Sequence record: NC_105513.1
Strand: one strand, 5' to 3'
Length of the DNA: 51,277 nucleotides
Source: a phage
Part shown: positions 8,792 to 40,193 of the stretch, one piece after another
Numbering within the stretch: position 1 is the stretch's first letter
Layout of the letters: each line of letters opens with the position of its first letter
Notes under the pieces: model-generated
The model's input: only the letters and a program-made list of their open reading frames with translations
Told to the model about the DNA's origin: nothing
Database searches by the model: none
Program-made: the position numbers and the translations under genes

Positions 8792-9055
8792 ATGGTTTTT
8801 AACGCACTAAAACGAATCTTTAAACCTGAATACCGGATCGTTGCTTGCACAGAATGCAAGATTTATTACCTGCAACGCCGCCGCGTTATTAGTGGGGATT
8901 GGGAATATCTGACGGATGATGCTTTCGGATTTTGGGCTATGGAGTTCAATAGCTACAGCGAAGCGCGTGAATACGCTAAAAAGTTGCACAAGTTCAGACC
9001 TTACAAGCTGCGTTTGCTGGTTGTCAAAAAATGCGATGTGTTGGATCACGAATGA
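8792..9055 (+). CDS. hypothetical protein
   Basis: 87 aa, RBS GAGGG; CTEC motif. Confidence 0.5.
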   Translation: MVFNALKRIFKPEYRIVACTECKIYYLQRRRVISGDWEYLTDDAFGFWAMEFNSYSEAREYAKKLHKFRPYKLRLLVVKKCDVLDHE

Positions 9056-9231
9056 AAAGAGTAATTATCATTTTTATTACCATTATCGCTGGTTGCTACC
9101 TGGCTTATAATTATAGCGGCATTGTTGAGTCAATCGGCGGGTTGATTATCTTCATGGCTGGCGGGTATGCTGGCTATTGTGATGGATTCGAAAACGGAAA
9201 GCGTTACATGCTGACCGGAAAAAAGAAGTAA
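9052..9231 (+). CDS. small membrane protein
   Basis: 59 aa from MKRVIIIFITIIAGCYLAY; ATG overlaps upstream stop. Confidence 0.5.
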   Translation: MKRVIIIFITIIAGCYLAYNYSGIVESIGGLIIFMAGGYAGYCDGFENGKRYMLTGKKK

Positions 9232-9273
9232 TGTTAACCGCGCCGCTCCGGTGGCGCTAAAAGGAGGAAGCAA

Positions 9274-9561
9274 ATGGCTAAAAGCAATCGTAAAATGTTG
9301 ATTAACGCATTCGAAAAGGCAGCGCTTGAGCGTGGCTGGAATGACTCATTTCACACAGCAAACTGTATCCGCCGTTACGGATTCAAGAATTGCCGCTCCT
9401 GGGCGCGTCAAATGGCTTCATGGTATGATCTTGATGCGCATTACCTTGATATGGATTGCGCCCTTGTTGAAATGATTGAGCAGGCCGCATTAGAGGATCG
9501 ACCATTAACGCAATCTGATTTTGACGATTTTGTGCGCGATGAAATTTATTATATGAGCTAA
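9274..9561 (+). CDS. hypothetical protein
   Basis: 95 aa, RBS AAGGAGGAAG; stop followed by promoter box. Confidence 0.55.
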   Translation: MAKSNRKMLINAFEKAALERGWNDSFHTANCIRRYGFKNCRSWARQMASWYDLDAHYLDMDCALVEMIEQAALEDRPLTQSDFDDFVRDEIYYMS

Positions 9562-9604
9562 TAGCACTTTTTGTTAAAACTTCCGCGAGGGCATTTGTTA
9601 AAGT
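9560..9604 (+). promoter_or_regulatory. box-type promoter (weak -10 TAAAGT)
   Basis: AATAGCACTTTTTGTTAAAAC; 22-bp spacer to TAAAGT. Confidence 0.45.
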
Positions 9605-9636
9605 GTCCTCATTGAAGCGAAATAGAGGAAAGCGCA

Positions 9637-9855
9637 ATGAAAATCAAGATTATAGACGTGAACAATGCCATTAGTGGTGACGAACTTACACTTGAGGAGT
9701 GCGGGATTGAGGTTGGCGATGTGTTCGAAGTTACCGGACAATATCGCGATGGAACTTTGAGCATTCAAGCGCCACGAGATACCGATGATGGTTGCATCAA
9801 GGCTGGCGATGAATTGAGCGTTAACGAAGGTGAATATGAGGTTGTAGAAGAATGA
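9637..9855 (+). CDS. hypothetical acidic protein
   Basis: 72 aa, RBS GAGGAA. Confidence 0.55.
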   Translation: MKIKIIDVNNAISGDELTLEECGIEVGDVFEVTGQYRDGTLSIQAPRDTDDGCIKAGDELSVNEGEYEVVEE

Positions 9856-10115
9856 TCACGATTAACCTGTCAGAGCAGCAAGCGCGCATTATGTTAGCGG
9901 CCTTTGGTTGGCGAGATGATGACGGTATTCAGGCAACGGTTAAAATCCCTGATACGGTAGCGCGTGAAGTTTTTAACCAGCTTGAACACGCATTTGTTCC
10001 TGTTGGCACTGATCAGGCAGAAACAGCGGCTTGGTTCGGAGAGAACGGATACAGAGATCAGCAAGTCGAAAACTGGAAGCGCAAAAACGAGACTGCGGAG
10101 GAGGCCGGATTATGA
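9852..10115 (+). CDS. hypothetical protein
   Basis: 87 aa, start overlaps upstream stop. Confidence 0.55.
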   Translation: MITINLSEQQARIMLAAFGWRDDDGIQATVKIPDTVAREVFNQLEHAFVPVGTDQAETAAWFGENGYRDQQVENWKRKNETAEEAGL

Positions 10116-10426
10116 TTTACATTCACTACTACCAGATCGGGACAAACGAAAACAAGCAGGAGCGCAGAGCAATTTGTGACACGCTCGACGATGCGAAAGC
10201 ACAGCAACGCGTTTTGGGTGGTGTAATTCAGGCTTTTGAGCCAGTGGAAGATATAGAGCACCGAGAGCATTTGAAAGAGATTGTTGTTGATGAAATTTCA
10301 TCACTAATCGACGACATGACAAATCACGGGCCTGGTTCTCCGTGGGAAGAAGCCGGATCGACGGAGTGGGATTGTGCTAAAGTTGCAACGCTTAACGAAT
10401 TTCGTGAGTTGCTAGACGATTTTTAA
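10112..10426 (+). CDS. hypothetical protein
   Basis: 104 aa from MIYIHYYQ, RBS GGAGGAGG. Confidence 0.55.
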   Translation: MIYIHYYQIGTNENKQERRAICDTLDDAKAQQRVLGGVIQAFEPVEDIEHREHLKEIVVDEISSLIDDMTNHGPGSPWEEAGSTEWDCAKVATLNEFRELLDDF

Positions 10427-10624
10427 TTAAAATTGAATGCCTCATACAGCGAACAGGACGCATTTTGACGAGGTATTTTTTATGTAAGGTGATTCAATGG
10501 GTAGCTATATAAAACCGTCGCAATGGTGCGCACAGAAGCAAGAGGAAGCATTAGAGCGCGGCAACAATGAAACAGCAATGCACTATTTCGAAATGTACAA
10601 CTTGTGGAAGGGTAGAGGTCTGTA

Positions 10625-10855
10625 ATGTTTGGAATGAACGAGGCACAATTCAACGCTGCAAAACGCCAGGCTAAGAAGTGCGGCGAGGCAATGAAGGCGG
10701 ATGTTGAAAAGCGCGGGAAGTATGTTGATGAAGTCATGAAGGGCATTATTGCCGAACATTATCAGCCAGTTGCGCCAATGCTGACAATTACCCAATTCAT
10801 CTGGTTGTGTGGTTATCTTCGTGGGAGATGGGGAAACGCATTTGACCGCGAATGA
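10625..10855 (+). CDS. hypothetical protein
   Basis: 76 aa ORF. Confidence 0.5.
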   Translation: MFGMNEAQFNAAKRQAKKCGEAMKADVEKRGKYVDEVMKGIIAEHYQPVAPMLTITQFIWLCGYLRGRWGNAFDRE

Positions 10856-10884
10856 TTGACAACGATTTCCTGATTGGTTAGCAT
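10856..10884 (+). promoter_or_regulatory. sigma70-like promoter TTGACA-17-TAGCAT
   Basis: in 164-bp ORF-free gap; followed by structured region and U-run. Confidence 0.35.
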
Positions 10885-11019
10885 ATTCAGCGTTTACATA
10901 AGAGCGGCATTAGTGCCGAACGGGTGGCGCGGTTGCCACGCAACAATGGCGATGTGCTGGAGGTTATTGCGATGCAATATAATCCGTAAGACGTATCGCC
11001 TTTTTTTATAGGTGAATAT

Positions 11020-11253
11020 ATGGAAAAGTACAAATTAACTTTCATGTTTAATAGCATGGTGATGAATCCCTTAAATGGTTACGCTTGCAATAGCTTTTCT
11101 GTTACCGTTAATGAGGATGAAATTGATGATGATGGAAAATTCATTCGAATTGGTGAATACTTGTACCCAGTGCACAATATCAATTGCATCAAACGCGAGA
11201 TCGTAAAAGATGAAGTACAAGGTAAGGTTGACGATCAGGCGAATGGGGCGTAA
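11020..11253 (+). CDS. hypothetical protein
   Basis: 77 aa ORF, RBS GGTGA. Confidence 0.5.
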   Translation: MEKYKLTFMFNSMVMNPLNGYACNSFSVTVNEDEIDDDGKFIRIGEYLYPVHNINCIKREIVKDEVQGKVDDQANGA

Positions 11254-11395
11254 TTGCTCGTCATGTAGACAAAGTTTTGAATGTGATGTTGAAGCGCGCG
11301 GAGAGCTTGAGGCAGCAGCAAGAGCAAAAGAGTTGTCCGGCGCTAATCAAGACACTCACCAGTTTTCAATAGATCTTGTAAGGAAAATGTCATGA
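11243..11395 (+). CDS. hypothetical zinc-ribbon-like small protein
   Basis: 50 aa from MGRNCSSCRQSFECD; overlaps preceding ORF, start uncertain. Confidence 0.35.
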   Translation: MGRNCSSCRQSFECDVEARGELEAAARAKELSGANQDTHQFSIDLVRKMS

Positions 11396-11631
11396 GTTCT
11401 GTAATTATTGGTTTGGTTGCTTTAATCATTGGTGTTCTAATCGGCTTTGTTGCTGTATCTTTCGTGGTGGCTGTTGGTGTTCGCTATAAGTCAAAAAAAG
11501 GTGAATTTGCTTTAGCGTTTTGGGATGAAGATCAGAAAGTTTGGCAGGTTCGCGGTCACTACTTATCAATCGGTGGCAGGATTCACAGCACTATGAAGAC
11601 AAATCCAGAAAAAGTAAAATACAAGTATTGA
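11392..11631 (+). CDS. hypothetical membrane protein
   Basis: 79 aa; N-terminal TM segment VIIGLVALIIGVLIGFVAVSFVVAV. Confidence 0.5.
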   Translation: MSSVIIGLVALIIGVLIGFVAVSFVVAVGVRYKSKKGEFALAFWDEDQKVWQVRGHYLSIGGRIHSTMKTNPEKVKYKY

Positions 11632-11638
11632 ACAACTA

Positions 11639-11661
11639 CCCGCCAAATGGCGGGTTTTTTA
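11639..11661 (+). terminator. rho-independent terminator
   Basis: CCCGCC-AAAT-GGCGGG then TTTTTT. Confidence 0.6.
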
Positions 11662-11683
11662 TTGCCTGCAATTTGTCTATAAT
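11655..11683 (+). promoter_or_regulatory. putative promoter with consensus -10 TATAAT (11678..11683)
   Basis: perfect -10 about 28 nt upstream of terminase small subunit ATG; -35 not convincing. Confidence 0.35.
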
Positions 11684-11711
11684 GATGCTTTGTTATAAAG
11701 GAGGGCGCATT

Positions 11712-12233
11712 ATGGCTAAAAACGTTGAGCCAGCAGTAAAGGCTTGCAATTTTAAAAAACTATATAATAAGCAATATGGCGATATAGCAAAAATGACAAA
11801 GGCGCACAAGTACACGCCGGAGCAGGTATTTGATCTGGCTGTTCGTTACTTTACGTGGGCTGAGGAAAACCATATACAGGCTGCGGAAACGGCATCCTTT
11901 CAGGGTGACGTATACGAAAGTAAGATTCACAAGCCGCGCGTGTTCACCTTAAATGGATTCCGCTTATTCGCTGGCCTTTCTGCCTCCGTACTTGAAAAAT
12001 GGCGACGTGAGCCAGGATTCAGCGATGTTATGGACTTTATCGACGGCGTTGTTTACGAGCAAAAATTCCAGCTTGCCGCAAACAATATTGTTAACGCTGG
12101 ATTCATTGGCAAAGAGATCGGCATTGAAAAGCCAGCTACCGTTACCATTGAGAATAACACAAGCGCCAGCGTTGACGCTGTAACGGCGGAGGAAGTAAAA
12201 GAGGCGGTAATTGACATTCTGGAGAAGATATAA
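11712..12233 (+). CDS. putative terminase small subunit
   Basis: 173 aa directly upstream of and overlapping the large terminase start; RBS AAGGAGGG; assigned by position only. Confidence 0.5.
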   Translation: MAKNVEPAVKACNFKKLYNKQYGDIAKMTKAHKYTPEQVFDLAVRYFTWAEENHIQAAETASFQGDVYESKIHKPRVFTLNGFRLFAGLSASVLEKWRREPGFSDVMDFIDGVVYEQKFQLAANNIVNAGFIGKEIGIEKPATVTIENNTSASVDAVTAEEVKEAVIDILEKI

Positions 12234-13801
12234 TGCTGATTTGGGAAGACTTAACAGCGGCGCAAAAACGCGCCGTTAAGGAAATGAGCGAATATTCATT
12301 CGAAAAGATGATCCGCATTTGGTTTCAACTTCTCCAGGGGCAAAGGTTTTTAGGAAACTGGCATTTCAGTTACCTATGCAGCGAAGTTGAAAAAATCATC
12401 AAAGGCGAGTCACAGAATGTAATTTTCAACATAACGCCAGGCAGTGGTAAAACAGAGATATTCTCGATCCACATGTCACCTTATGCGTCATTGAAAAGTA
12501 AGAAGGTGAGAAATCTTAATTTGTCGTTTAGTGATGGCCTTGTCCAGCAGAATAGCAACCGCATCAAAGAGATTATTGGTTCTCCAGAATGGCAGGAGCT
12601 ATGGCCTGGAAAGTTGGCAAAGGCGAGCGCAAAGGATTTGATTGTAACTGATGGCGGCAAGGTTAAATTACAAGTTAACTCGCGTTCTATCGGAGGTCAG
12701 GTTACTGGTCTGCGTGGTGGCTACATGGACGATGGTTTTACTGGTATGTTGGTTCTTGATGATCCAGACAAGCCGGATGACATGCTTTCTAAGGTGAAGC
12801 GCGAAGCCGGACACATGCGCCTAAAGAACACGGTGCGATCGCGTCGAATGAAGGACACCACGCCAATTGTGATGGTTCAGCAACGTCTACACGTCAATGA
12901 TTCAACATGGTTCATGACAAACGGCGGCATGGGCGGCATCAAGTTTAAGGTGGTTAGTATTCCGGCGCTCGTTACTAAGGAATATCGCGAAACGCTTCCT
13001 GATTGGTTAAAGCCTGAGTTTGATCGCGATGTTTTGTCCAGTAAGCCAGTGATGATTGATGGCGTTGCTCATTATTCATTCTGGCCTGCTAAGGAAAGCG
13101 CGGATGAATTGCTTGCGCTTCGCAATGCCGATCCGTACACGTTCGCTAGTCAGTATCAGCAACAGCCTGTTGCGCTTGGCGGTAACGTGTTTAAAACAGA
13201 GTGGTTTCAGTATTACGGAAGCAGCGAGAAATGCACGCTACCAAAACCGGATCGCTTTGAATATACATTTATCACGGTTGATACCGCGCAGAAAACAGGG
13301 GAGCTTAACGACTATTCCGTGATCTGTTATTGGGGGATGTATAAAGATCGTGTCTACTTCATTGATGGCGTTCGCGGGAAATGGGAAGCACCGGACCTTG
13401 AGACGAATTTTGTTGCATTCGTTAATCAGTGCTGGAAGCGCAATAAAGAATGCGGAACGTTGCGAAGGATTCATGTTGAAGATAAATCGTCTGGCACTGG
13501 ATTGATTCAGAGTGCGGCGAAAAAAATCATGATCAAGATCAATCCCGTTCAGCGCGATAAAGACAAGGTTACTCGTGCAATGGACGCAGCACCAGTAATG
13601 CGCGCCGGACGCGTGGCACTTCCAGAATCTCATTCTATGCTGGCTGAGATACTCGCTGAAGTTGCGGCGTTCACATTCGATGATTCGCATCCTCATGATG
13701 ATATTGTTGATAACATCATTGATGCGGTTAACATTGAAATGAACATGGCAGATGATCCGGTTGGAAGAATGAAAAAATTGGCAGGTTTGCGGAACAAATA
13801 G
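12233..13801 (+). CDS. terminase large subunit
   Basis: 522 aa; N-terminal ATPase with Walker A ITPGSGKTE and acidic Walker B LVLDDPDKPDD; C-terminal nuclease-like region; position before portal. Confidence 0.85.
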   Translation: MLIWEDLTAAQKRAVKEMSEYSFEKMIRIWFQLLQGQRFLGNWHFSYLCSEVEKIIKGESQNVIFNITPGSGKTEIFSIHMSPYASLKSKKVRNLNLSFSDGLVQQNSNRIKEIIGSPEWQELWPGKLAKASAKDLIVTDGGKVKLQVNSRSIGGQVTGLRGGYMDDGFTGMLVLDDPDKPDDMLSKVKREAGHMRLKNTVRSRRMKDTTPIVMVQQRLHVNDSTWFMTNGGMGGIKFKVVSIPALVTKEYRETLPDWLKPEFDRDVLSSKPVMIDGVAHYSFWPAKESADELLALRNADPYTFASQYQQQPVALGGNVFKTEWFQYYGSSEKCTLPKPDRFEYTFITVDTAQKTGELNDYSVICYWGMYKDRVYFIDGVRGKWEAPDLETNFVAFVNQCWKRNKECGTLRRIHVEDKSSGTGLIQSAAKKIMIKINPVQRDKDKVTRAMDAAPVMRAGRVALPESHSMLAEILAEVAAFTFDDSHPHDDIVDNIIDAVNIEMNMADDPVGRMKKLAGLRNK

Positions 13802-13817
13802 CACGAATCGACAAACC
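13797..13817 (+). promoter_or_regulatory. degenerate box copy without correctly spaced -10
   Basis: AATAGCACGAATCGACAAACC at terminase stop; followed by terminator, not a -10. Confidence 0.4.
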
Positions 13818-13831
13818 AATATATAATCAAA

Positions 13832-13856
13832 GGCTGGTAAATCCAGCCTTTTTTAT
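13832..13856 (+). terminator. rho-independent terminator between terminase and portal
   Basis: GGCTGG-TAAAT-CCAGCC then TTTTTTATT. Confidence 0.6.
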
Positions 13857-13869
13857 TGGAGGAAAGATA

Positions 13870-15150
13870 ATGAGTAAATCACGAATCGTTAAGGCTGATG
13901 GCTATAACGAGATCTTTAAAGGCGAGAATTGCAAATCGCGAGTAGAGCAACCATTCTACATGCAATCAATGCCATACAAGACACTTGCTGACTTTTACGA
14001 AAAAGACGGCCTGGCAAAAAGGGTTATTGACGTAGTACCAGAGGAAATGGTTTCCCCTGGCTTCACGGTTGACGGCGTGGCAGACGAGGCAGCATTCCGT
14101 TCTTTGTGGGATGAGAAGCGATTGAATGCAAAAATTATTGATGCGCTTTGCTGGTCGCGTTTGTTTGGTGGATCTGCAATCATTGCTCTTGTTCAGGATG
14201 GGCGAGCGCTCAAATCACCTGTAAAGCCTGGTGCCATGTTGGAGGATGTGCGAGTTTACGATCGCTATCAGATTCGCGTTGAAGCGCGCGAAACTAATCC
14301 CCGCAAGGTTCGCTATGGTGAGCCAGTGCTTTACACTGTAACGCCAGGCGGAGACTTGCCGGAATACCAGGTACACTACACGCGCGTTTGCATTATCGAC
14401 GGTGAGCGGATACCTAACGCAAAGCGACGCAGCAATGATGGCTGGGGTGAGTCAGTTCTTAACAAGCGACTTGTTGAGGCTATTGTTGATTATAACTATT
14501 GTGAAACATTGGCAACGCAATTATTGCGGCGTAAGCAACAGGCGGTATGGAAGGCTAAAGGACTCGCTGACTTGTGCGATGATGAGGAAGGTGTTAGCGC
14601 GGCACGCCTGAGACTTGCGCAGGTTGACGATGAGGGCGGCGTAGGCAAGGCCATTGGTATTGATGCTGAGGATGAGGAATATGATGTTCTTAACTCTGAC
14701 ATTAGCGGAGTTGATTCTTTTCTGGAAAAGAAAATGGATCGCATAGTTTCCCTTTCAGGTATTCATGAAATCATCCTGAAAAATAAAAACGTTGGCGGCG
14801 TTAGCGCAAGCCAAAACACGGCGCTTGAAACATTCTATAAACTTATTGAGCGAAAACGCGTTGAGGATTACAAACCTATCCTTGAATTTCTATTGCCGTT
14901 CATCATTAGTGAGCAGGAGTGGAGCATTGAGTTTTCACCTTTGAGCGTGCCTAGCGATAAAGATCAGGCTGAAATTCTGAATAAGAATATCGACTCAATC
15001 AGCAAGGCTATTGATGGTCAGTTCCTTGATGTTGAAGAAGCGCGAGACACGTTGCGAGCAATCGCCCCAAGCGTTAAACTAAAGGACACTAATAAAATCA
15101 AGCTGCCGGAGCCATCGGAGCCGGAGCCAGGCACGCAGGGGAATGAGTAA
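13870..15150 (+). CDS. portal protein
   Basis: 426 aa immediately after terminase, RBS GGAGGAAAG; size and position typical. Confidence 0.75.
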   Translation: MSKSRIVKADGYNEIFKGENCKSRVEQPFYMQSMPYKTLADFYEKDGLAKRVIDVVPEEMVSPGFTVDGVADEAAFRSLWDEKRLNAKIIDALCWSRLFGGSAIIALVQDGRALKSPVKPGAMLEDVRVYDRYQIRVEARETNPRKVRYGEPVLYTVTPGGDLPEYQVHYTRVCIIDGERIPNAKRRSNDGWGESVLNKRLVEAIVDYNYCETLATQLLRRKQQAVWKAKGLADLCDDEEGVSAARLRLAQVDDEGGVGKAIGIDAEDEEYDVLNSDISGVDSFLEKKMDRIVSLSGIHEIILKNKNVGGVSASQNTALETFYKLIERKRVEDYKPILEFLLPFIISEQEWSIEFSPLSVPSDKDQAEILNKNIDSISKAIDGQFLDVEEARDTLRAIAPSVKLKDTNKIKLPEPSEPEPGTQGNE

Positions 15151-17562: not shown

Positions 17563-17586
17563 GGCGCTCACTGAGCGCCTTTTTTA
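17563..17586 (+). terminator. rho-independent terminator
   Basis: GGCGCTC-ACT-GAGCGCC then TTTTTTAT. Confidence 0.65.
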
Positions 17587-17600
17587 TATTTGGGGTTATC

Positions 17601-18035
17601 ATGAGTGATTATTCAGTCATTGTTGGCGCTGAGTCGCCAGGGTGCATGGTCGATTCTTCAATAATGGTGATTAACGGATCTTTCGTGTGCGGAGATGAAT
17701 TTATTGCGCCAGGTAAGATTGTGCGACTATCACATATAATAAATGGATACAAAATAGCAAGTGTTCATGGGGATCTTGTTATTGGCGTGGTAGTAAGGCC
17801 GCCGGACTCGTGCATATATGAGGAGGGTGATCCCGTTAATGTGGTTAGTAGAGGTAGTGTGTGGTGCTTAACTTCTGAGAGCGAAGCGCCAGAATATGGA
17901 GATAAAGTATTTGTAACGCAAGATGGAGATGCGGCATACAGTGAAGGCGACTTGCTGAGCGGTTGGATCTTTACTGGCGAACATGTAAAGGTTGATCATG
18001 ATTCATATATTGTCGGGGTAAGCATTAGCGCATAA
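17601..18035 (+). CDS. putative head structural protein (paralog of upstream gene)
   Basis: 144 aa; shares G-V-x-V..G.VW...A..G...DG pattern with 17043..17555. Confidence 0.5.
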   Translation: MSDYSVIVGAESPGCMVDSSIMVINGSFVCGDEFIAPGKIVRLSHIINGYKIASVHGDLVIGVVVRPPDSCIYEEGDPVNVVSRGSVWCLTSESEAPEYGDKVFVTQDGDAAYSEGDLLSGWIFTGEHVKVDHDSYIVGVSISA

Positions 18036-19105: not shown

Positions 19106-19136
19106 GGGGAATCCTTAACTGGATTCCCTTTTTTAT
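19106..19136 (+). terminator. rho-independent terminator after major capsid gene
   Basis: GGGGAATCC-TTAACT-GGATTCCC then TTTTTT. Confidence 0.7.
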
Positions 19137-19149
19137 TGGAGGTTATGAA

Positions 19150-19422
19150 ATGGCTAAAGAAAAAACTGTAACGCTAAAGGTTTCCGGCGTGTGCCTTATC
19201 ATTGTTGATGGTGAGCATTATCATCCAGGCAAAGAGTTTGACGTAGAAGAATCAAAATTGAAAACAAGCGCGTTTGAATATCTAATTGCAAAAGGCGATC
19301 TGGAGGTTAAAGACAACTCCGCATTGAATGAAGAAATCAAACAGAGCGCAGCAAGCAAACGTAAAAAAGACCCGCGAGAGGGCAAGAGCAAAGCCGAACT
19401 TGAAGACGGCGGCATCTATTAA
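19150..19422 (+). CDS. hypothetical protein
   Basis: 90 aa ORF between two terminators. Confidence 0.5.
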   Translation: MAKEKTVTLKVSGVCLIIVDGEHYHPGKEFDVEESKLKTSAFEYLIAKGDLEVKDNSALNEEIKQSAASKRKKDPREGKSKAELEDGGIY

Positions 19423-37714: not shown

Positions 37715-40111
37715 TTAACTCTCAAGAGTTGTTGGCTTGTTGATCAATGCAGAAACAGCCGCTTTTAACTCCTCTATTTCTTCTCTCATTGATTTCAAGT
37801 CTTCTTCTTGCTCCTTACATACCTGAAGTAAATATGCTGAAATTGCTGAGTAATCAACTTGTAAAAATTCAGCTTTACCTATTAACTCACTTCCGTCTTT
37901 CGTCGGCCCTTGAAGATAATCATAATCCTCAAAAGTGCTAACAGCTTCAGGAATAACTCCTTGAACTTCTTGTGCTATAACTCCAACATGACGAGATCCA
38001 TCTTTCTTAAGTGTGTATGAATACCCACACAGTTTACTAAGTCCATCCCTTGCATTCTTAAGTGGTTTTATATCTTCCTTAAGATTTACATCCGATCCCT
38101 GGTTGAAAGCGCTTGCGTTTACAGGTCCGTTAACCTGAAGATGCTTTGTGTTATTTGAGTTTAATTGCGCATAAAAAACCCACCCAGGGCCATTATCGAA
38201 ACCACACTCAATAACCGACAATCGATCTGACCCATTACCCCACAATTTGAAGGTTGCAGGGTGTGACGAGTTGCCGTCGTTCAGCATTTTGAAATACTTT
38301 CCGCTCGGACGGTCGATCTCTAAACTTGCGGCCTGGACGTATGCCTTGCCCGCAAAATTCTTTGTACCAAGCACAACGCCGTCTGTGATCAGATCAACCT
38401 TAGACGATGTAACATCGTTCAGGAATAGCGCGTTCGCCCCAGTGTCCTTCCCTAAAAACCAAAGACGCGTGCCTGCTGAGTTGTACCCTGTTACGTGCAG
38501 TGGTTGGTTGTTTGTTGACGTTGTTCCGTCGATCCGGAAGCCACCATTAGCGGTTGTAACTTTAATGCTGGGTACGGTCATAGCAAATGTGCCACTGGCT
38601 GCAAGGCCATTATAGGCAATCAGCTTGTTGTCATATGCAAGCTCACCATTGTCCCTTAATTGCAAGAATTTATTAGATGCCGAGTTGGAAACAGAAACAT
38701 CATTAGGCCAGGTGCGAAGAACTGCGCGCTTTTCGTCCCCTCTAGCCTCCACCGAAGAACCAGCGACCACCCCAGAAAAAGTCGGCGACGACCCCGCGTT
38801 ATACAGTTCGTACCACTGCGACCATGGGCCAGTCGTCGCGTTGCCTAGCCATCGAATCCAACGCCGCCCGTTGCCGTAGGCGGTGTACGTCTGTACGCAA
38901 CTCTTCGGATCGTTAGCACCGGATCTTTGCACCAGTAAACAACCCGCCATGTTAATAGGATAGTTACGCTCTGGGGTGGCGTTAGCCGACATGGACTGAT
39001 AATAAAATCCAGCCTTATCACCCTGAAGGATGTTAAGGTCTTCGCTAACCAACGTTGCCCGTCGCTCATGCATGACCTGAAGGTTGGCGCGCGCTCCCTG
39101 GTCGTTCGATGCGCCTGTCCCGCCGTCCCCGATCGCCACGTCACCGTTAGCACCCAGCTTCGCCAGTTCAATGGCGCCAACACTTCCCGACGCACCGTTG
39201 ATCGCGTTGTTGTTCCCCGAGAAAACTTTAACGCGCGAGGTTTGCCAATCAACGTTGATTGCAAAGAATGTATCCCCCGCGCCTCCACATACGCCAGGTC
39301 CGTATCTGAAAGGGGTCATCTCACCCGATGGGAACTGCGAAATATCATCGACGCGCCAGAATCCTCCTTTGACCGTATCGCGCAACCGCTTGAGCATATC
39401 CCTTACGCCAGTCGGTGCCGGTAATGTTACGCCAGCATACGGCACTCTATTTTGAGCTTCTGAGCTTTCAGCAGCAGCCGCTGCGCGATCAGCCTCTGTT
39501 TTAGCCTTGTTCGCACTGTTTGCAGCATTAGTTTCAGATGTTTTGGCGTTTGTCTCAGAAGTCTTCGCGGCACTAGCCGAGTTAGCAGCATTAGTTTCCG
39601 ATGTTTTAGCCGCATTCTTACTTGCATTAGCTGCATTTTCAGATGCTTTGGCATTAGTTTCCGATGTTTTAGCGTTTGTCTCAGAAGTCTTCGCAGCGCT
39701 GGCGCTTTGTTTTGCTGATTCAGCGCCTTGCTTGACTTGATTTACAAGATCCTTCAATCCTTCAAGATCGAAATCTCTAAAAAATTCAAGTGCGTCAGCG
39801 ATCTCTGTTTCTTTGCTTTGATAGTAACGCAATGTTTCAGCTACATCTTGAGCAAGACCATCAACAGTTATTGAGTCATGAAGTAAGATCGCGTAATTTG
39901 AACGGGCAACTACCGCGCCACCAGTTGTAATTGCACGAATGCTTGTATCGTTAATAACTTCAGTTATCACGGCAATCTGCAACGGCTGAGTTAAAAATAC
40001 AATAGTTGCACCAGGGCGAATGAGCGTTAGTTGCTCTCGCCATTTTGTGTCGTATCCAGTGATATAACCTTGCGCGTCCATTGACGCTTGTCCTGTTCTG
40101 TAAATTGCCAT
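37715..40111 (-). CDS. L-shaped (side) tail fibre, T5 pb1-like, with C-terminal intramolecular chaperone domain
   Basis: 798 aa from MAIYRTGQ (RBS GGAGAAA); AAKTSETNA-type repeats as in T5 pb1; C-terminal segment resembling S74 self-cleaving chaperone domain. Confidence 0.8.
39480..39720 (-). repeat. in-frame tandem repeats (about 62-bp period) inside tail fibre gene
   Basis: GCATTAGTTTC(A/C)GATGTTTT(G/A)GC recurs at about 39527, 39589, 39651; encodes AAKTSETNA-type repeats. Confidence 0.7.
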
Positions 40112-40169
40112 GCGCTTTCTCCAATGTTGCATGTTAATGTCAATGAAGATAATAGCATTTGCTAAGGCC

Positions 40170-40193
40170 AAAAAAAACCCCGCAATGCGGGGT
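40170..40193 (-). terminator. rho-independent terminator after primase-like gene
   Basis: ACCCCGC-AAT-GCGGGGT; minus strand followed by eight U. Confidence 0.65.

Follow-up and report, generated by a model that had tools for sequence, protein, structure and literature searches.

The window, by which we mean the whole stretch of DNA analyzed, comprises 51,277 nt of sequence record NC_105513.1. The phage belongs to Hanrivervirus (Drexlerviridae, Tempevirinae), T1-like siphoviruses with genomes of ∼50 kb; region 10400-11500 is 100% identical to that of Escherichia phage JLBYU09 and 92-99% identical to that of many Hanrivervirus genomes. In the curated BASEL annotation of the close relative KarlJaspers, the genes form a single rightward array that runs from ∼25 small early genes to terS, terL, and the portal, head and tail genes. 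The locus of interest is a gap at the point in this co-directional array where the small early genes end and those for packaging and structure begin. An earlier note on this DNA gave the gap as 164 bp long and free of ORFs, and suggested that it encodes a small RNA, a structured 5′ leader for the gene at 11020, or a terminator with an incidental promoter. The length is correct, as the gap covers 10856-11019 and the next ATG is at 11020. The gene upstream encodes a 76-aa homologue of T1p59 (phrog_303) with no assigned function, and T1p59-like genes are present in 834 phage records. Downstream are genes for a 77-aa protein, a 61-aa CxxC protein and a 79-aa membrane protein (DUF7299), followed by terS and terL. 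The first protein gene 3′ of the gap varies from phage to phage, and almost all annotations of relatives mark the gap as non-coding. About 20 GenBank records named 'UNVERIFIED Campylobacter phage' (MG0656xx, for example our L013 and L015) are near-identical here to E. coli Hanrivervirus, which probably reflects a mislabeled host or contamination of the isolates. The features of the locus are as follows.

10853-10855, + strand: stop codon (TGA) of the T1p59-like gene
10856-11019: intergenic gap, 164 nt
10856..10861, + strand: −35 hexamer TTGACA, directly after the T1p59-like stop codon; invariant in the 15-phage alignment A1
10870..10878, + strand: conserved spacer motif CTGATTGGT (CTGAYYGG in other genera); positions T46-G52 invariant in A1
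10879..10884, + strand: −10 hexamer TAGCAT, 17 nt from the −35 hexamer
10890..11007, + strand: predicted primary transcript of ∼118 nt, from the geometry of promoter and terminator
10891..10904, + strand: unpaired 5′ motif CGTTTACATAAGAG (family consensus CGTnnACAnAAGAG; core also given as CGUuuACAuAAGAG), always ∼6 nt past the −10 hexamer
10905..10918, + strand: hairpin H1, CGGCA-TTAG-TGCCG, −5.7 kcal/mol
10919..10923, + strand: linker AACGG (AACGn), mean column identity 0.90; A31 and A32 invariant
10924..10939, + strand: hairpin H2, GTGGC-GCGGTT-GCCAC, 5-bp stem and conserved loop beginning GCG, −8.8 kcal/mol
10940..10947, + strand: A-rich linker GCAACAAT, mean column identity 0.98 over 10942-10947
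10948..11000, + strand: hairpin H3 (terminator stem), GGCGATGTGC…GACGTATCGCC, −19 kcal/mol, z = −3.1
10965..10979, + strand: apical nested hairpin TATTGC-GAT-GCAATA in H3 (alignment A1)
11001..11007, + strand: U-run (T7) of the intrinsic terminator
11010..11022, + strand: Shine-Dalgarno (SD) sequence AGGTGA and ATG of the next gene (11020..11253), beginning 3 nt past the U-run
11638..11660, + strand: second strong intrinsic terminator (stem-loop also given as 11638-11655), between the three small genes and terS, −13.8 kcal/mol, z = −4.3

Promoter and predicted structure of the leader

The promoter TTGACA-17-TAGCAT begins right after the stop codon that ends at 10855, where the earlier note had placed it. 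It matches the consensus at 10 of 12 positions and has the near-consensus hexamers and the spacer of 16-18 nt that define a sigma-70 promoter. Both hexamers are invariant in the 15 phages, from three genera, of alignment A1. In all other genera examined TTGAC occurs at the same position with unchanged promoter geometry, so that the promoter has the same site and distance in Hanrivervirus, Warwickvirus, Henuseptimavirus, Tlsvirus, Changchunvirus, Webervirus, Kyungwonvirus, Tunavirus and Rogunavirus. The spacer is conserved as well: the motif CTGATTGG is invariant in the 15 phages of three genera, with the variants CTGACCGGG in Webervirus and CTGACTGGT in loci L058, L117 and L121. Since promoter spacers are normally not conserved, the motif at 10870..10878 may be a protein-binding site. 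The surrounding region 9000-13000 shows no enrichment of promoter-like sites (5 found, 6.7 expected). The leader promoter is near consensus and differs in type from the ∼17 repeat-associated promoters of this phage, described below, and unmodified host polymerase should therefore initiate from it. The TLS promoters P01 and P51, in the accessible part of Table S1 of the TLS study, do not include it, and the TLS re-annotation gives only three sigma-70 promoters and poses the role of regulatory repeats as an unanswered question.

We placed the transcript start 6-8 nt past the −10 hexamer and the end in the U-run. The predicted RNA begins with the unpaired motif, of which A8, C9, A13, G14 and A15 are invariant in 28 diverse leaders, and continues with H1, the AACGn linker, H2 and the A-rich linker to H3. 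The palindrome TATTGC-GAT-GCAATA nested inside GGCGAT…ATCGCC and followed by T7, as reported in the earlier note, corresponds to the apex and outer stem of H3. The outer stem has 9 bp (10948-10956 with 10992-11000), and H3 contains an invariant string CCGTAAGACG at 10984-10993 (CCGUAAGAC). With its stable G+C-rich stem-loop and directly adjoining U-run, this structure has the hallmarks of an intrinsic terminator. The apical hairpin is part of an insertion of ∼17 nt that occurs only in the closest relatives of this phage and in Warwickvirus, where it reads TTTTGC-AAT-GCAAAA, a compensatory change. In locus L092 a different hairpin is inserted at the same site, showing that the apex is variable. 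Folding the single sequence of the whole 123 nt gave an unremarkable score (z = −1.14), and only the terminator hairpin stands out.

Conservation and covariation in T1-like phages

We aligned 28 diverse leaders with MAFFT, blind to structure, and scored covariation in the H1 and H2 helices. In this alignment 91% of the cells pair, and nine of the 10 pairs have double substitutions. The covariation score was 0.68, compared with 0.23 for shuffled alignments (0/500 reached 0.68) and at most 0.13 for controls in which the partners were slid by 1-3 columns, and RNAalifold independently predicted both helices. In H1 four pairs covary, and the stem occurs in about seven mutually compensating versions (CGGC/GCCG, CAGC/GCTG, GCTC/GAGC, GCCC/GGGT, GCGC/GCGC, GCCA/TGGC and, in Webervirus, GCGG/CCGC). 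H2 is paired in 97.9% of the cells, with double changes at four of its five pairs and 10 stem versions. The outer stem of H3 covaries too (one pair occurs as AU, CG or GC and its neighbor as UA or CG), and all three stems stay paired despite many double substitutions. G·U pairs outnumber A·C pairs by 11:3 in H1/H2 and by 23:0 in H3. This excess identifies the + strand as the one that folds as RNA, and the leader promoter would transcribe that strand.

Sequence conservation agrees with this picture, and the possibility that the region is not conserved, which would have counted against a functional RNA in the earlier note, does not apply. Mean column identity is 0.89 in the promoter and 0.90-0.98 in the linkers; the upstream gene reaches 0.75 at its third codon positions, and the downstream gene 0.43. 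The gap is as well conserved as the surrounding coding sequence. The family-wide unit consists of TTGACn-17-TAnnnT, ∼6 nt, CGTnnACAnAAGAG, a 4-bp H1, AACGn, and a 5-bp H2 with a loop starting GCG. It was found after the T1p59-like gene and ahead of the terS cluster in at least nine genera, among them Tlsvirus, Changchunvirus, Webervirus, Kyungwonvirus, Henuseptimavirus, Tunavirus (including T1 itself) and Rogunavirus. Of 98 loci that matched the pattern in IMG/VR, ∼72 are distinct leaders of this type. On its own genome our covariance model, R1, scored 72.4 bits at the leader and 9.1 bits at the next best site, indicating a single copy; scores in relatives were 63 bits (CS01) and 43 bits (Shfl1/T1).

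The element is specific to Drexlerviridae. Searching 596 Gb of bacterial genomes with the DNA pattern gave 46 matches, none of them in enterobacteria, with R1 scores of 12-21 bits. Five IMG/VR loci outside Drexlerviridae (L075, L084, L103, L059 and L107), found in unrelated Firmicute-like contexts, scored 11-20 bits; because this is the range of the bacterial controls and far below that of the members, we regard these matches as chance. In two groups of Firmicute-like IMG/VR loci (L084/L083/L102 and L075/L036), CGTAAACAAAAGAG and then a hairpin come directly behind perfect TTGACA-TGnTATAAT promoters, and the R1 scores of these loci are no different from those of chance pattern matches. Searches by blastn found no homologue of the element in E. 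coli genomes, and the Rfam covariance models gave no match within 10856-11019, even at E values up to 10.

The earlier note's description of the gap as ORF-free holds in the sense that matters for function and not to the letter: the gap has a 45-aa ORF with a TTG start (10874..11011, + strand) and a 56-aa ORF (10887..11057, − strand), neither of which is kept in relatives. Indeed, no ORF is conserved, most leaders lack any ORF of at least 12 aa, and the leaders differ by indels of 2 and 17 nt. A 32-aa ORF that could start at GTG 10913 behind the SD-like AAGAG is not conserved either. The element is thus a structured RNA rather than a protein gene or a symmetric DNA site. As a single sequence the gap is near chance; because relatives keep the promoter hexamers and maintain pairing through compensatory changes, we conclude that it holds a real, unannotated structured RNA element, conserved across T1-like phages ahead of the packaging genes. 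The suggestion of a terminator with an incidental promoter can be dismissed, as the promoter keeps its place and distance in nine genera and two hairpins downstream of it covary.

The 3′ end of the leader is variable. In Hanrivervirus and Warwickvirus a run of 4-8 U after H3 makes a good intrinsic terminator. Henuseptimavirus-like and other (class-A) lineages keep H3 and the invariant CCGUAAGAC with a broken U-run (for example, CUUCUUUCC or GUUUUAAC). Tlsvirus (including TLS), Changchunvirus and Tunavirus/T1 have no U-run and no terminator, and the RNA continues into the SD sequence and ATG of the next gene; these leaders have other hairpins instead, the last of which is a covarying stem with the loop …CCGUAA. 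Webervirus has a short GC hairpin with a variable U-run directly after H1. Three relatives have a tRNA gene between the last hairpin of the leader and the next gene, in the place of that gene's SD sequence:

JK06 (L029), 1403-1478: tRNA Arg-CCU
L121 (IMG/VR), 1198-1275: tRNA Arg-UCU
LF82-11 (L134), 751-838: tRNA Ser-GCU

In these relatives the leader promoter would drive tRNA-mRNA co-transcripts. The invariant part of the element is therefore the promoter and the 5′ module (the unpaired motif, H1, the linker and H2), and its 3′ neighborhood is an insertion hot spot that the leader promoter would serve. ARAGORN found no tRNA in the window and no tRNA-like structure in the leaders of relatives, and the real tRNA genes lie only downstream, in some of them.

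The string CCGUAA is present near the 3′ end of every leader type, and lies within H3 (10984-10993) in this phage. In L027, L031, L132, L029 and L121 a covarying stem of 4-5 bp lies ∼10 nt upstream of the SD sequence, and CCGUAA provides the 3′ side of its loop of 8-10 nt. A similar string, CGUAAAC or CGUGAAC, occurs at the 5′ end of the transcript, and the two may be sites for one binding factor. The CCGUAA loop loosely resembles the anticodon loop of tRNA-Thr (CGU/GGU); we considered tRNA mimicry and rejected it, as the look of an anticodon arm is insufficient.

Possible roles of the leader RNA

In this phage the SD sequence of the next gene begins 3 nt past the U-run; therefore, no promoter fits between the terminator and the gene, and promoter-like matches further downstream are at or below chance level. 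With no promoter after H3, transcription of the three small genes, terS and terL must pass H3. At least 8 more strong + strand terminators follow (in a second count, the one before terS and at least six beyond it), and most of them lie directly before an SD sequence and ATG; transcription into terS must also pass the terminator in front of it. Repeat-associated promoters, such as those at 13796 and 27727, may serve the structural genes further on, and hence genome-wide processive antitermination is not required.

We interpret the element, with a probability of about 0.5, as the leader RNA at the promoter-proximal end of a transcription unit that runs through three small genes into the packaging genes, terS and terL, of this T1-like phage. 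Host RNA polymerase would start at the near-consensus sigma-70 promoter, transcribe the 5′ module with the unpaired CGUuuACAuAAGAG, H1, AACG and H2 with its GCG… loop, and then meet H3 and U7, an intrinsic terminator 3 nt before the next ribosome-binding site. By default H3 would stop transcripts from the leader promoter, giving the ∼118-nt RNA, and would also stop early transcripts that come from further upstream. The genes beyond H3 would then be expressed only by read-through, and the conserved 5′ module, possibly with the spacer, would be the cis signal that sets or regulates this read-through, either by binding a phage or host factor or by acting directly on the polymerase. The mechanism would be attenuation or antitermination. 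In general terms the element would serve as a 5′ leader placed where the early genes give way to the packaging genes, with the terminated RNA as the default product in this phage. Its most likely role is to control transcription into the packaging genes, and it probably does not act as an independent regulatory small RNA. Of the possibilities raised earlier, the structured 5′ leader for the gene at 11020 fits the family-wide data best, since several genera continue without a terminator into an SD sequence or a tRNA gene; because the 3′ end is not fixed across genera, the shared function would be that of a leader and not of a terminated small RNA.

The candidate small RNA of the earlier note survives as a predicted terminated transcript of ∼118 nt in this phage, and gained no support as a trans-acting regulator. 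Phages do encode trans-acting small RNAs, and one that pairs with mRNAs of the host or the phage, perhaps aided by Hfq or ProQ, would account for the strong promoter and strong U7 terminator found here and for the conserved unpaired stretches (the 5′ motif and the AAC-rich linker). We nevertheless consider this unlikely: many genera that keep the 5′ module have lost the terminator or let it decay, so a discrete transcript is not predicted in all members, and no small RNA family in Rfam matches. When searched against the phage genome, the 5′ motif gave a best non-self duplex of −15.2 kcal/mol compared with a mean best of −17.2 kcal/mol for shuffled sequences, and no phage target scored above shuffled seeds. 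As the terminator is strong in this phage, a stable free RNA with a function of its own could still form. Simple punctuation of the gene array is a less probable explanation. Here H3 would end the upstream early operon, the promoter would restart transcription through a leaky terminator, and H1 and H2 would only stabilize or fold the 5′ end of the mRNA, for example as a 'stabilizer' with the SD-like AAGAG. Terminators directly before the next SD sequence do recur in the genome (13829, 17563 and 19106), and the 5′ motif includes an SD-like AAGAG(G). However, punctuation leaves the conserved H2 loop (GCG…), the invariant CCGUAAGAC in H3 and the conserved promoter spacer unexplained, and the hairpins lie away from the extreme 5′ end, unlike classical 5′ stabilizers. 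A DNA-level signal, such as a packaging site or replication origin, or a small protein gene would fit the proximity to terS and the mechanical ORFs of 45 and 56 aa; both are very hard to reconcile with the strand-asymmetric G·U excess, which indicates RNA, and with indels that are not multiples of 3 and the lack of a conserved ORF. Moreover, the TLS study puts a P22-like pac candidate elsewhere.

How the leader might act can be judged by comparison with known systems. It resembles lambda PR′-6S-tR′ in having a constitutive host-type promoter that gives a short, non-coding and intrinsically terminated transcript just upstream of late genes that need read-through. The promoter spacer is conserved here, and the Q-binding element of lambda lies in the spacer. 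We looked for a −10-like pause element with A at position 2 and T at position 6 within the first ∼25 transcribed bases and found no such sigma-dependent element: the conserved ACAnAAGAG gives only CATAAG, CAAAAG or CACAAG, which end in G and lack the last-position T. In further contrast to lambda, the hairpins of this RNA are under selection, which the 6S RNA does not need, and there is no sequence or Rfam similarity. Neither Pfam and PHROGs scans of 10 neighboring and regulatory proteins nor the BASEL annotation of KarlJaspers revealed an antiterminator-like protein, be it of the Q family or an arginine-rich protein like N. The nut sites and rrn leaders (boxA/boxB, with N and Nus factors) share with our element a promoter-proximal hairpin with a conserved loop and single-stranded flanks upstream of terminators, but the H2 loop (GCGRUW) is not like the GNRA-like boxB pentaloop. 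On the minus strand, 10894-10904 (ACATAAGAGCG on the + strand) reads CGCTCTTATGT and includes a perfect boxA of the lambda type, CGCTCTTA (CGCUCUUA-like); this boxA is on the non-transcribed strand only and in Hanrivervirus and Warwickvirus only, and we take it to be a coincidence. Attenuator leaders (BglG/RAT-type or riboswitch) are likewise structured 5′ UTRs in which a terminator lies immediately ahead of the first gene. They differ in that no alternative, antiterminator pairing that competes with H3 is conserved here, the terminator is absent in several genera, and no Rfam cis-regulatory family matches. In Webervirus GGCGGTAA resembles the RfaH ops element GGCGGTAG; judged by eye, it is without the required G8/T11, and we rejected it.

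The put RNAs of HK022 provide the model for a mechanism that needs no protein, in which H1 and H2 would stay on the polymerase and make it resist H3 and later terminators, while early transcripts from upstream would be halted at H3. Like putL and putR, the leader begins at the transcript 5′ end and has two stem-loops; a terminator follows immediately, then at least 8 more in the same direction, and such a mechanism would explain why selection acts on RNA structure and not just on DNA sequence. We hold it to be rather improbable. The hairpins are 14-16 nt long with stems of 4-5 bp, compared with ∼30 nt or more for each of the long put stems, and there is one copy in the genome instead of a second as in putL/putR. 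We rejected homology to put, as R1 found nothing in HK022 (at most 5 bits) and Rfam gave no match. Furthermore, a constitutive antiterminator behind a constitutive promoter would give no temporal control, and the later structural genes may have their own promoters. A broader proposal is that H1/H2 form a previously unknown promoter-proximal antiterminator RNA that acts at H3 and at the terminators further along the packaging and structural genes, working alone as put does or serving as the loading site for an unrecognized small phage protein; it is only slightly easier to accept and remains speculative.

We found no description of the leader RNA, which is absent from Rfam and unannotated in all records examined, and a search for literature on small RNAs or transcriptomes of T1-like phages yielded nothing relevant. 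It appears to represent a new RNA family. Its general kind is familiar, namely a leader close to its promoter that carries a terminator and precedes late genes; its architecture matches no characterized system. The locus bears on how T1-like phages time gene expression with the host polymerase alone. It offers a family-wide, covariation-supported RNA exactly at the boundary between early and packaging genes, a concrete, mutable target for studying the entry of transcription into terS and terL, and it marks a hot spot for inserted extra genes and tRNAs. If an antiterminator RNA were confirmed, the very short list of such RNAs would gain a new class, and it would represent the missing early-to-late switch of the T1-like family, licensing polymerase past H3 and later terminators.

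Repeats and recurring junctions in the window

The window contains ∼18 copies of a 21/22-nt Drexlerviridae repeat (AAATAGCACTTTTTGTTAAAAC), at or near ∼58, 1925, 2420, 3297, 4700, 5693, 6909, 8212, 9556, 13796, 18055, 21815, 27727, 32633, 41681, 44199, 45240, 48492 and 50659. The repeat was already reported for TLS and T1, with no function assigned to it (PMC11447400). Most copies are part of a unit of ∼70 nt that consists of the repeat, ∼17 nt, gG(C/T)ATAAT, ∼6 nt and CATCGACAACGAA. The unit looks like a promoter without a −35 hexamer, with a conserved early transcribed sequence, and points in the same direction as the flanking genes. Three copies (18055, 21815 and 32633) have the opposite orientation and lie within the rightward structural operon, where reversed copies directly precede the major capsid gene (18077) and the tape-measure chaperone gene (21846). 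In these the repeat would be transcribed as a 5′ UTR rather than sit upstream of a −10 hexamer, and one regulator may have opposite effects on early and late genes.

Between structural genes a terminator hairpin, T-run, SD sequence and ATG recur in similar sequence (…CCTTTTTTATTGGAGG…ATG) at 13829-13875, 17563-17606 and 19106-19155, and these junctions share the architecture of the 3′ end of the leader. At 13796-13851 a repeat-type promoter appears to overlap the terminator. A different set of imperfect direct repeats (GCATTAGTTTCAGATGTTTTGGC…), spaced by 21, 42 or 63 nt, is located at 39525-39703 inside the minus-strand ORF 37715..40171. They would encode 7-residue repeats in the 818-aa product, and the ORF lies, judged by position, roughly at the place of the lateral tail fiber gene of KarlJaspers.
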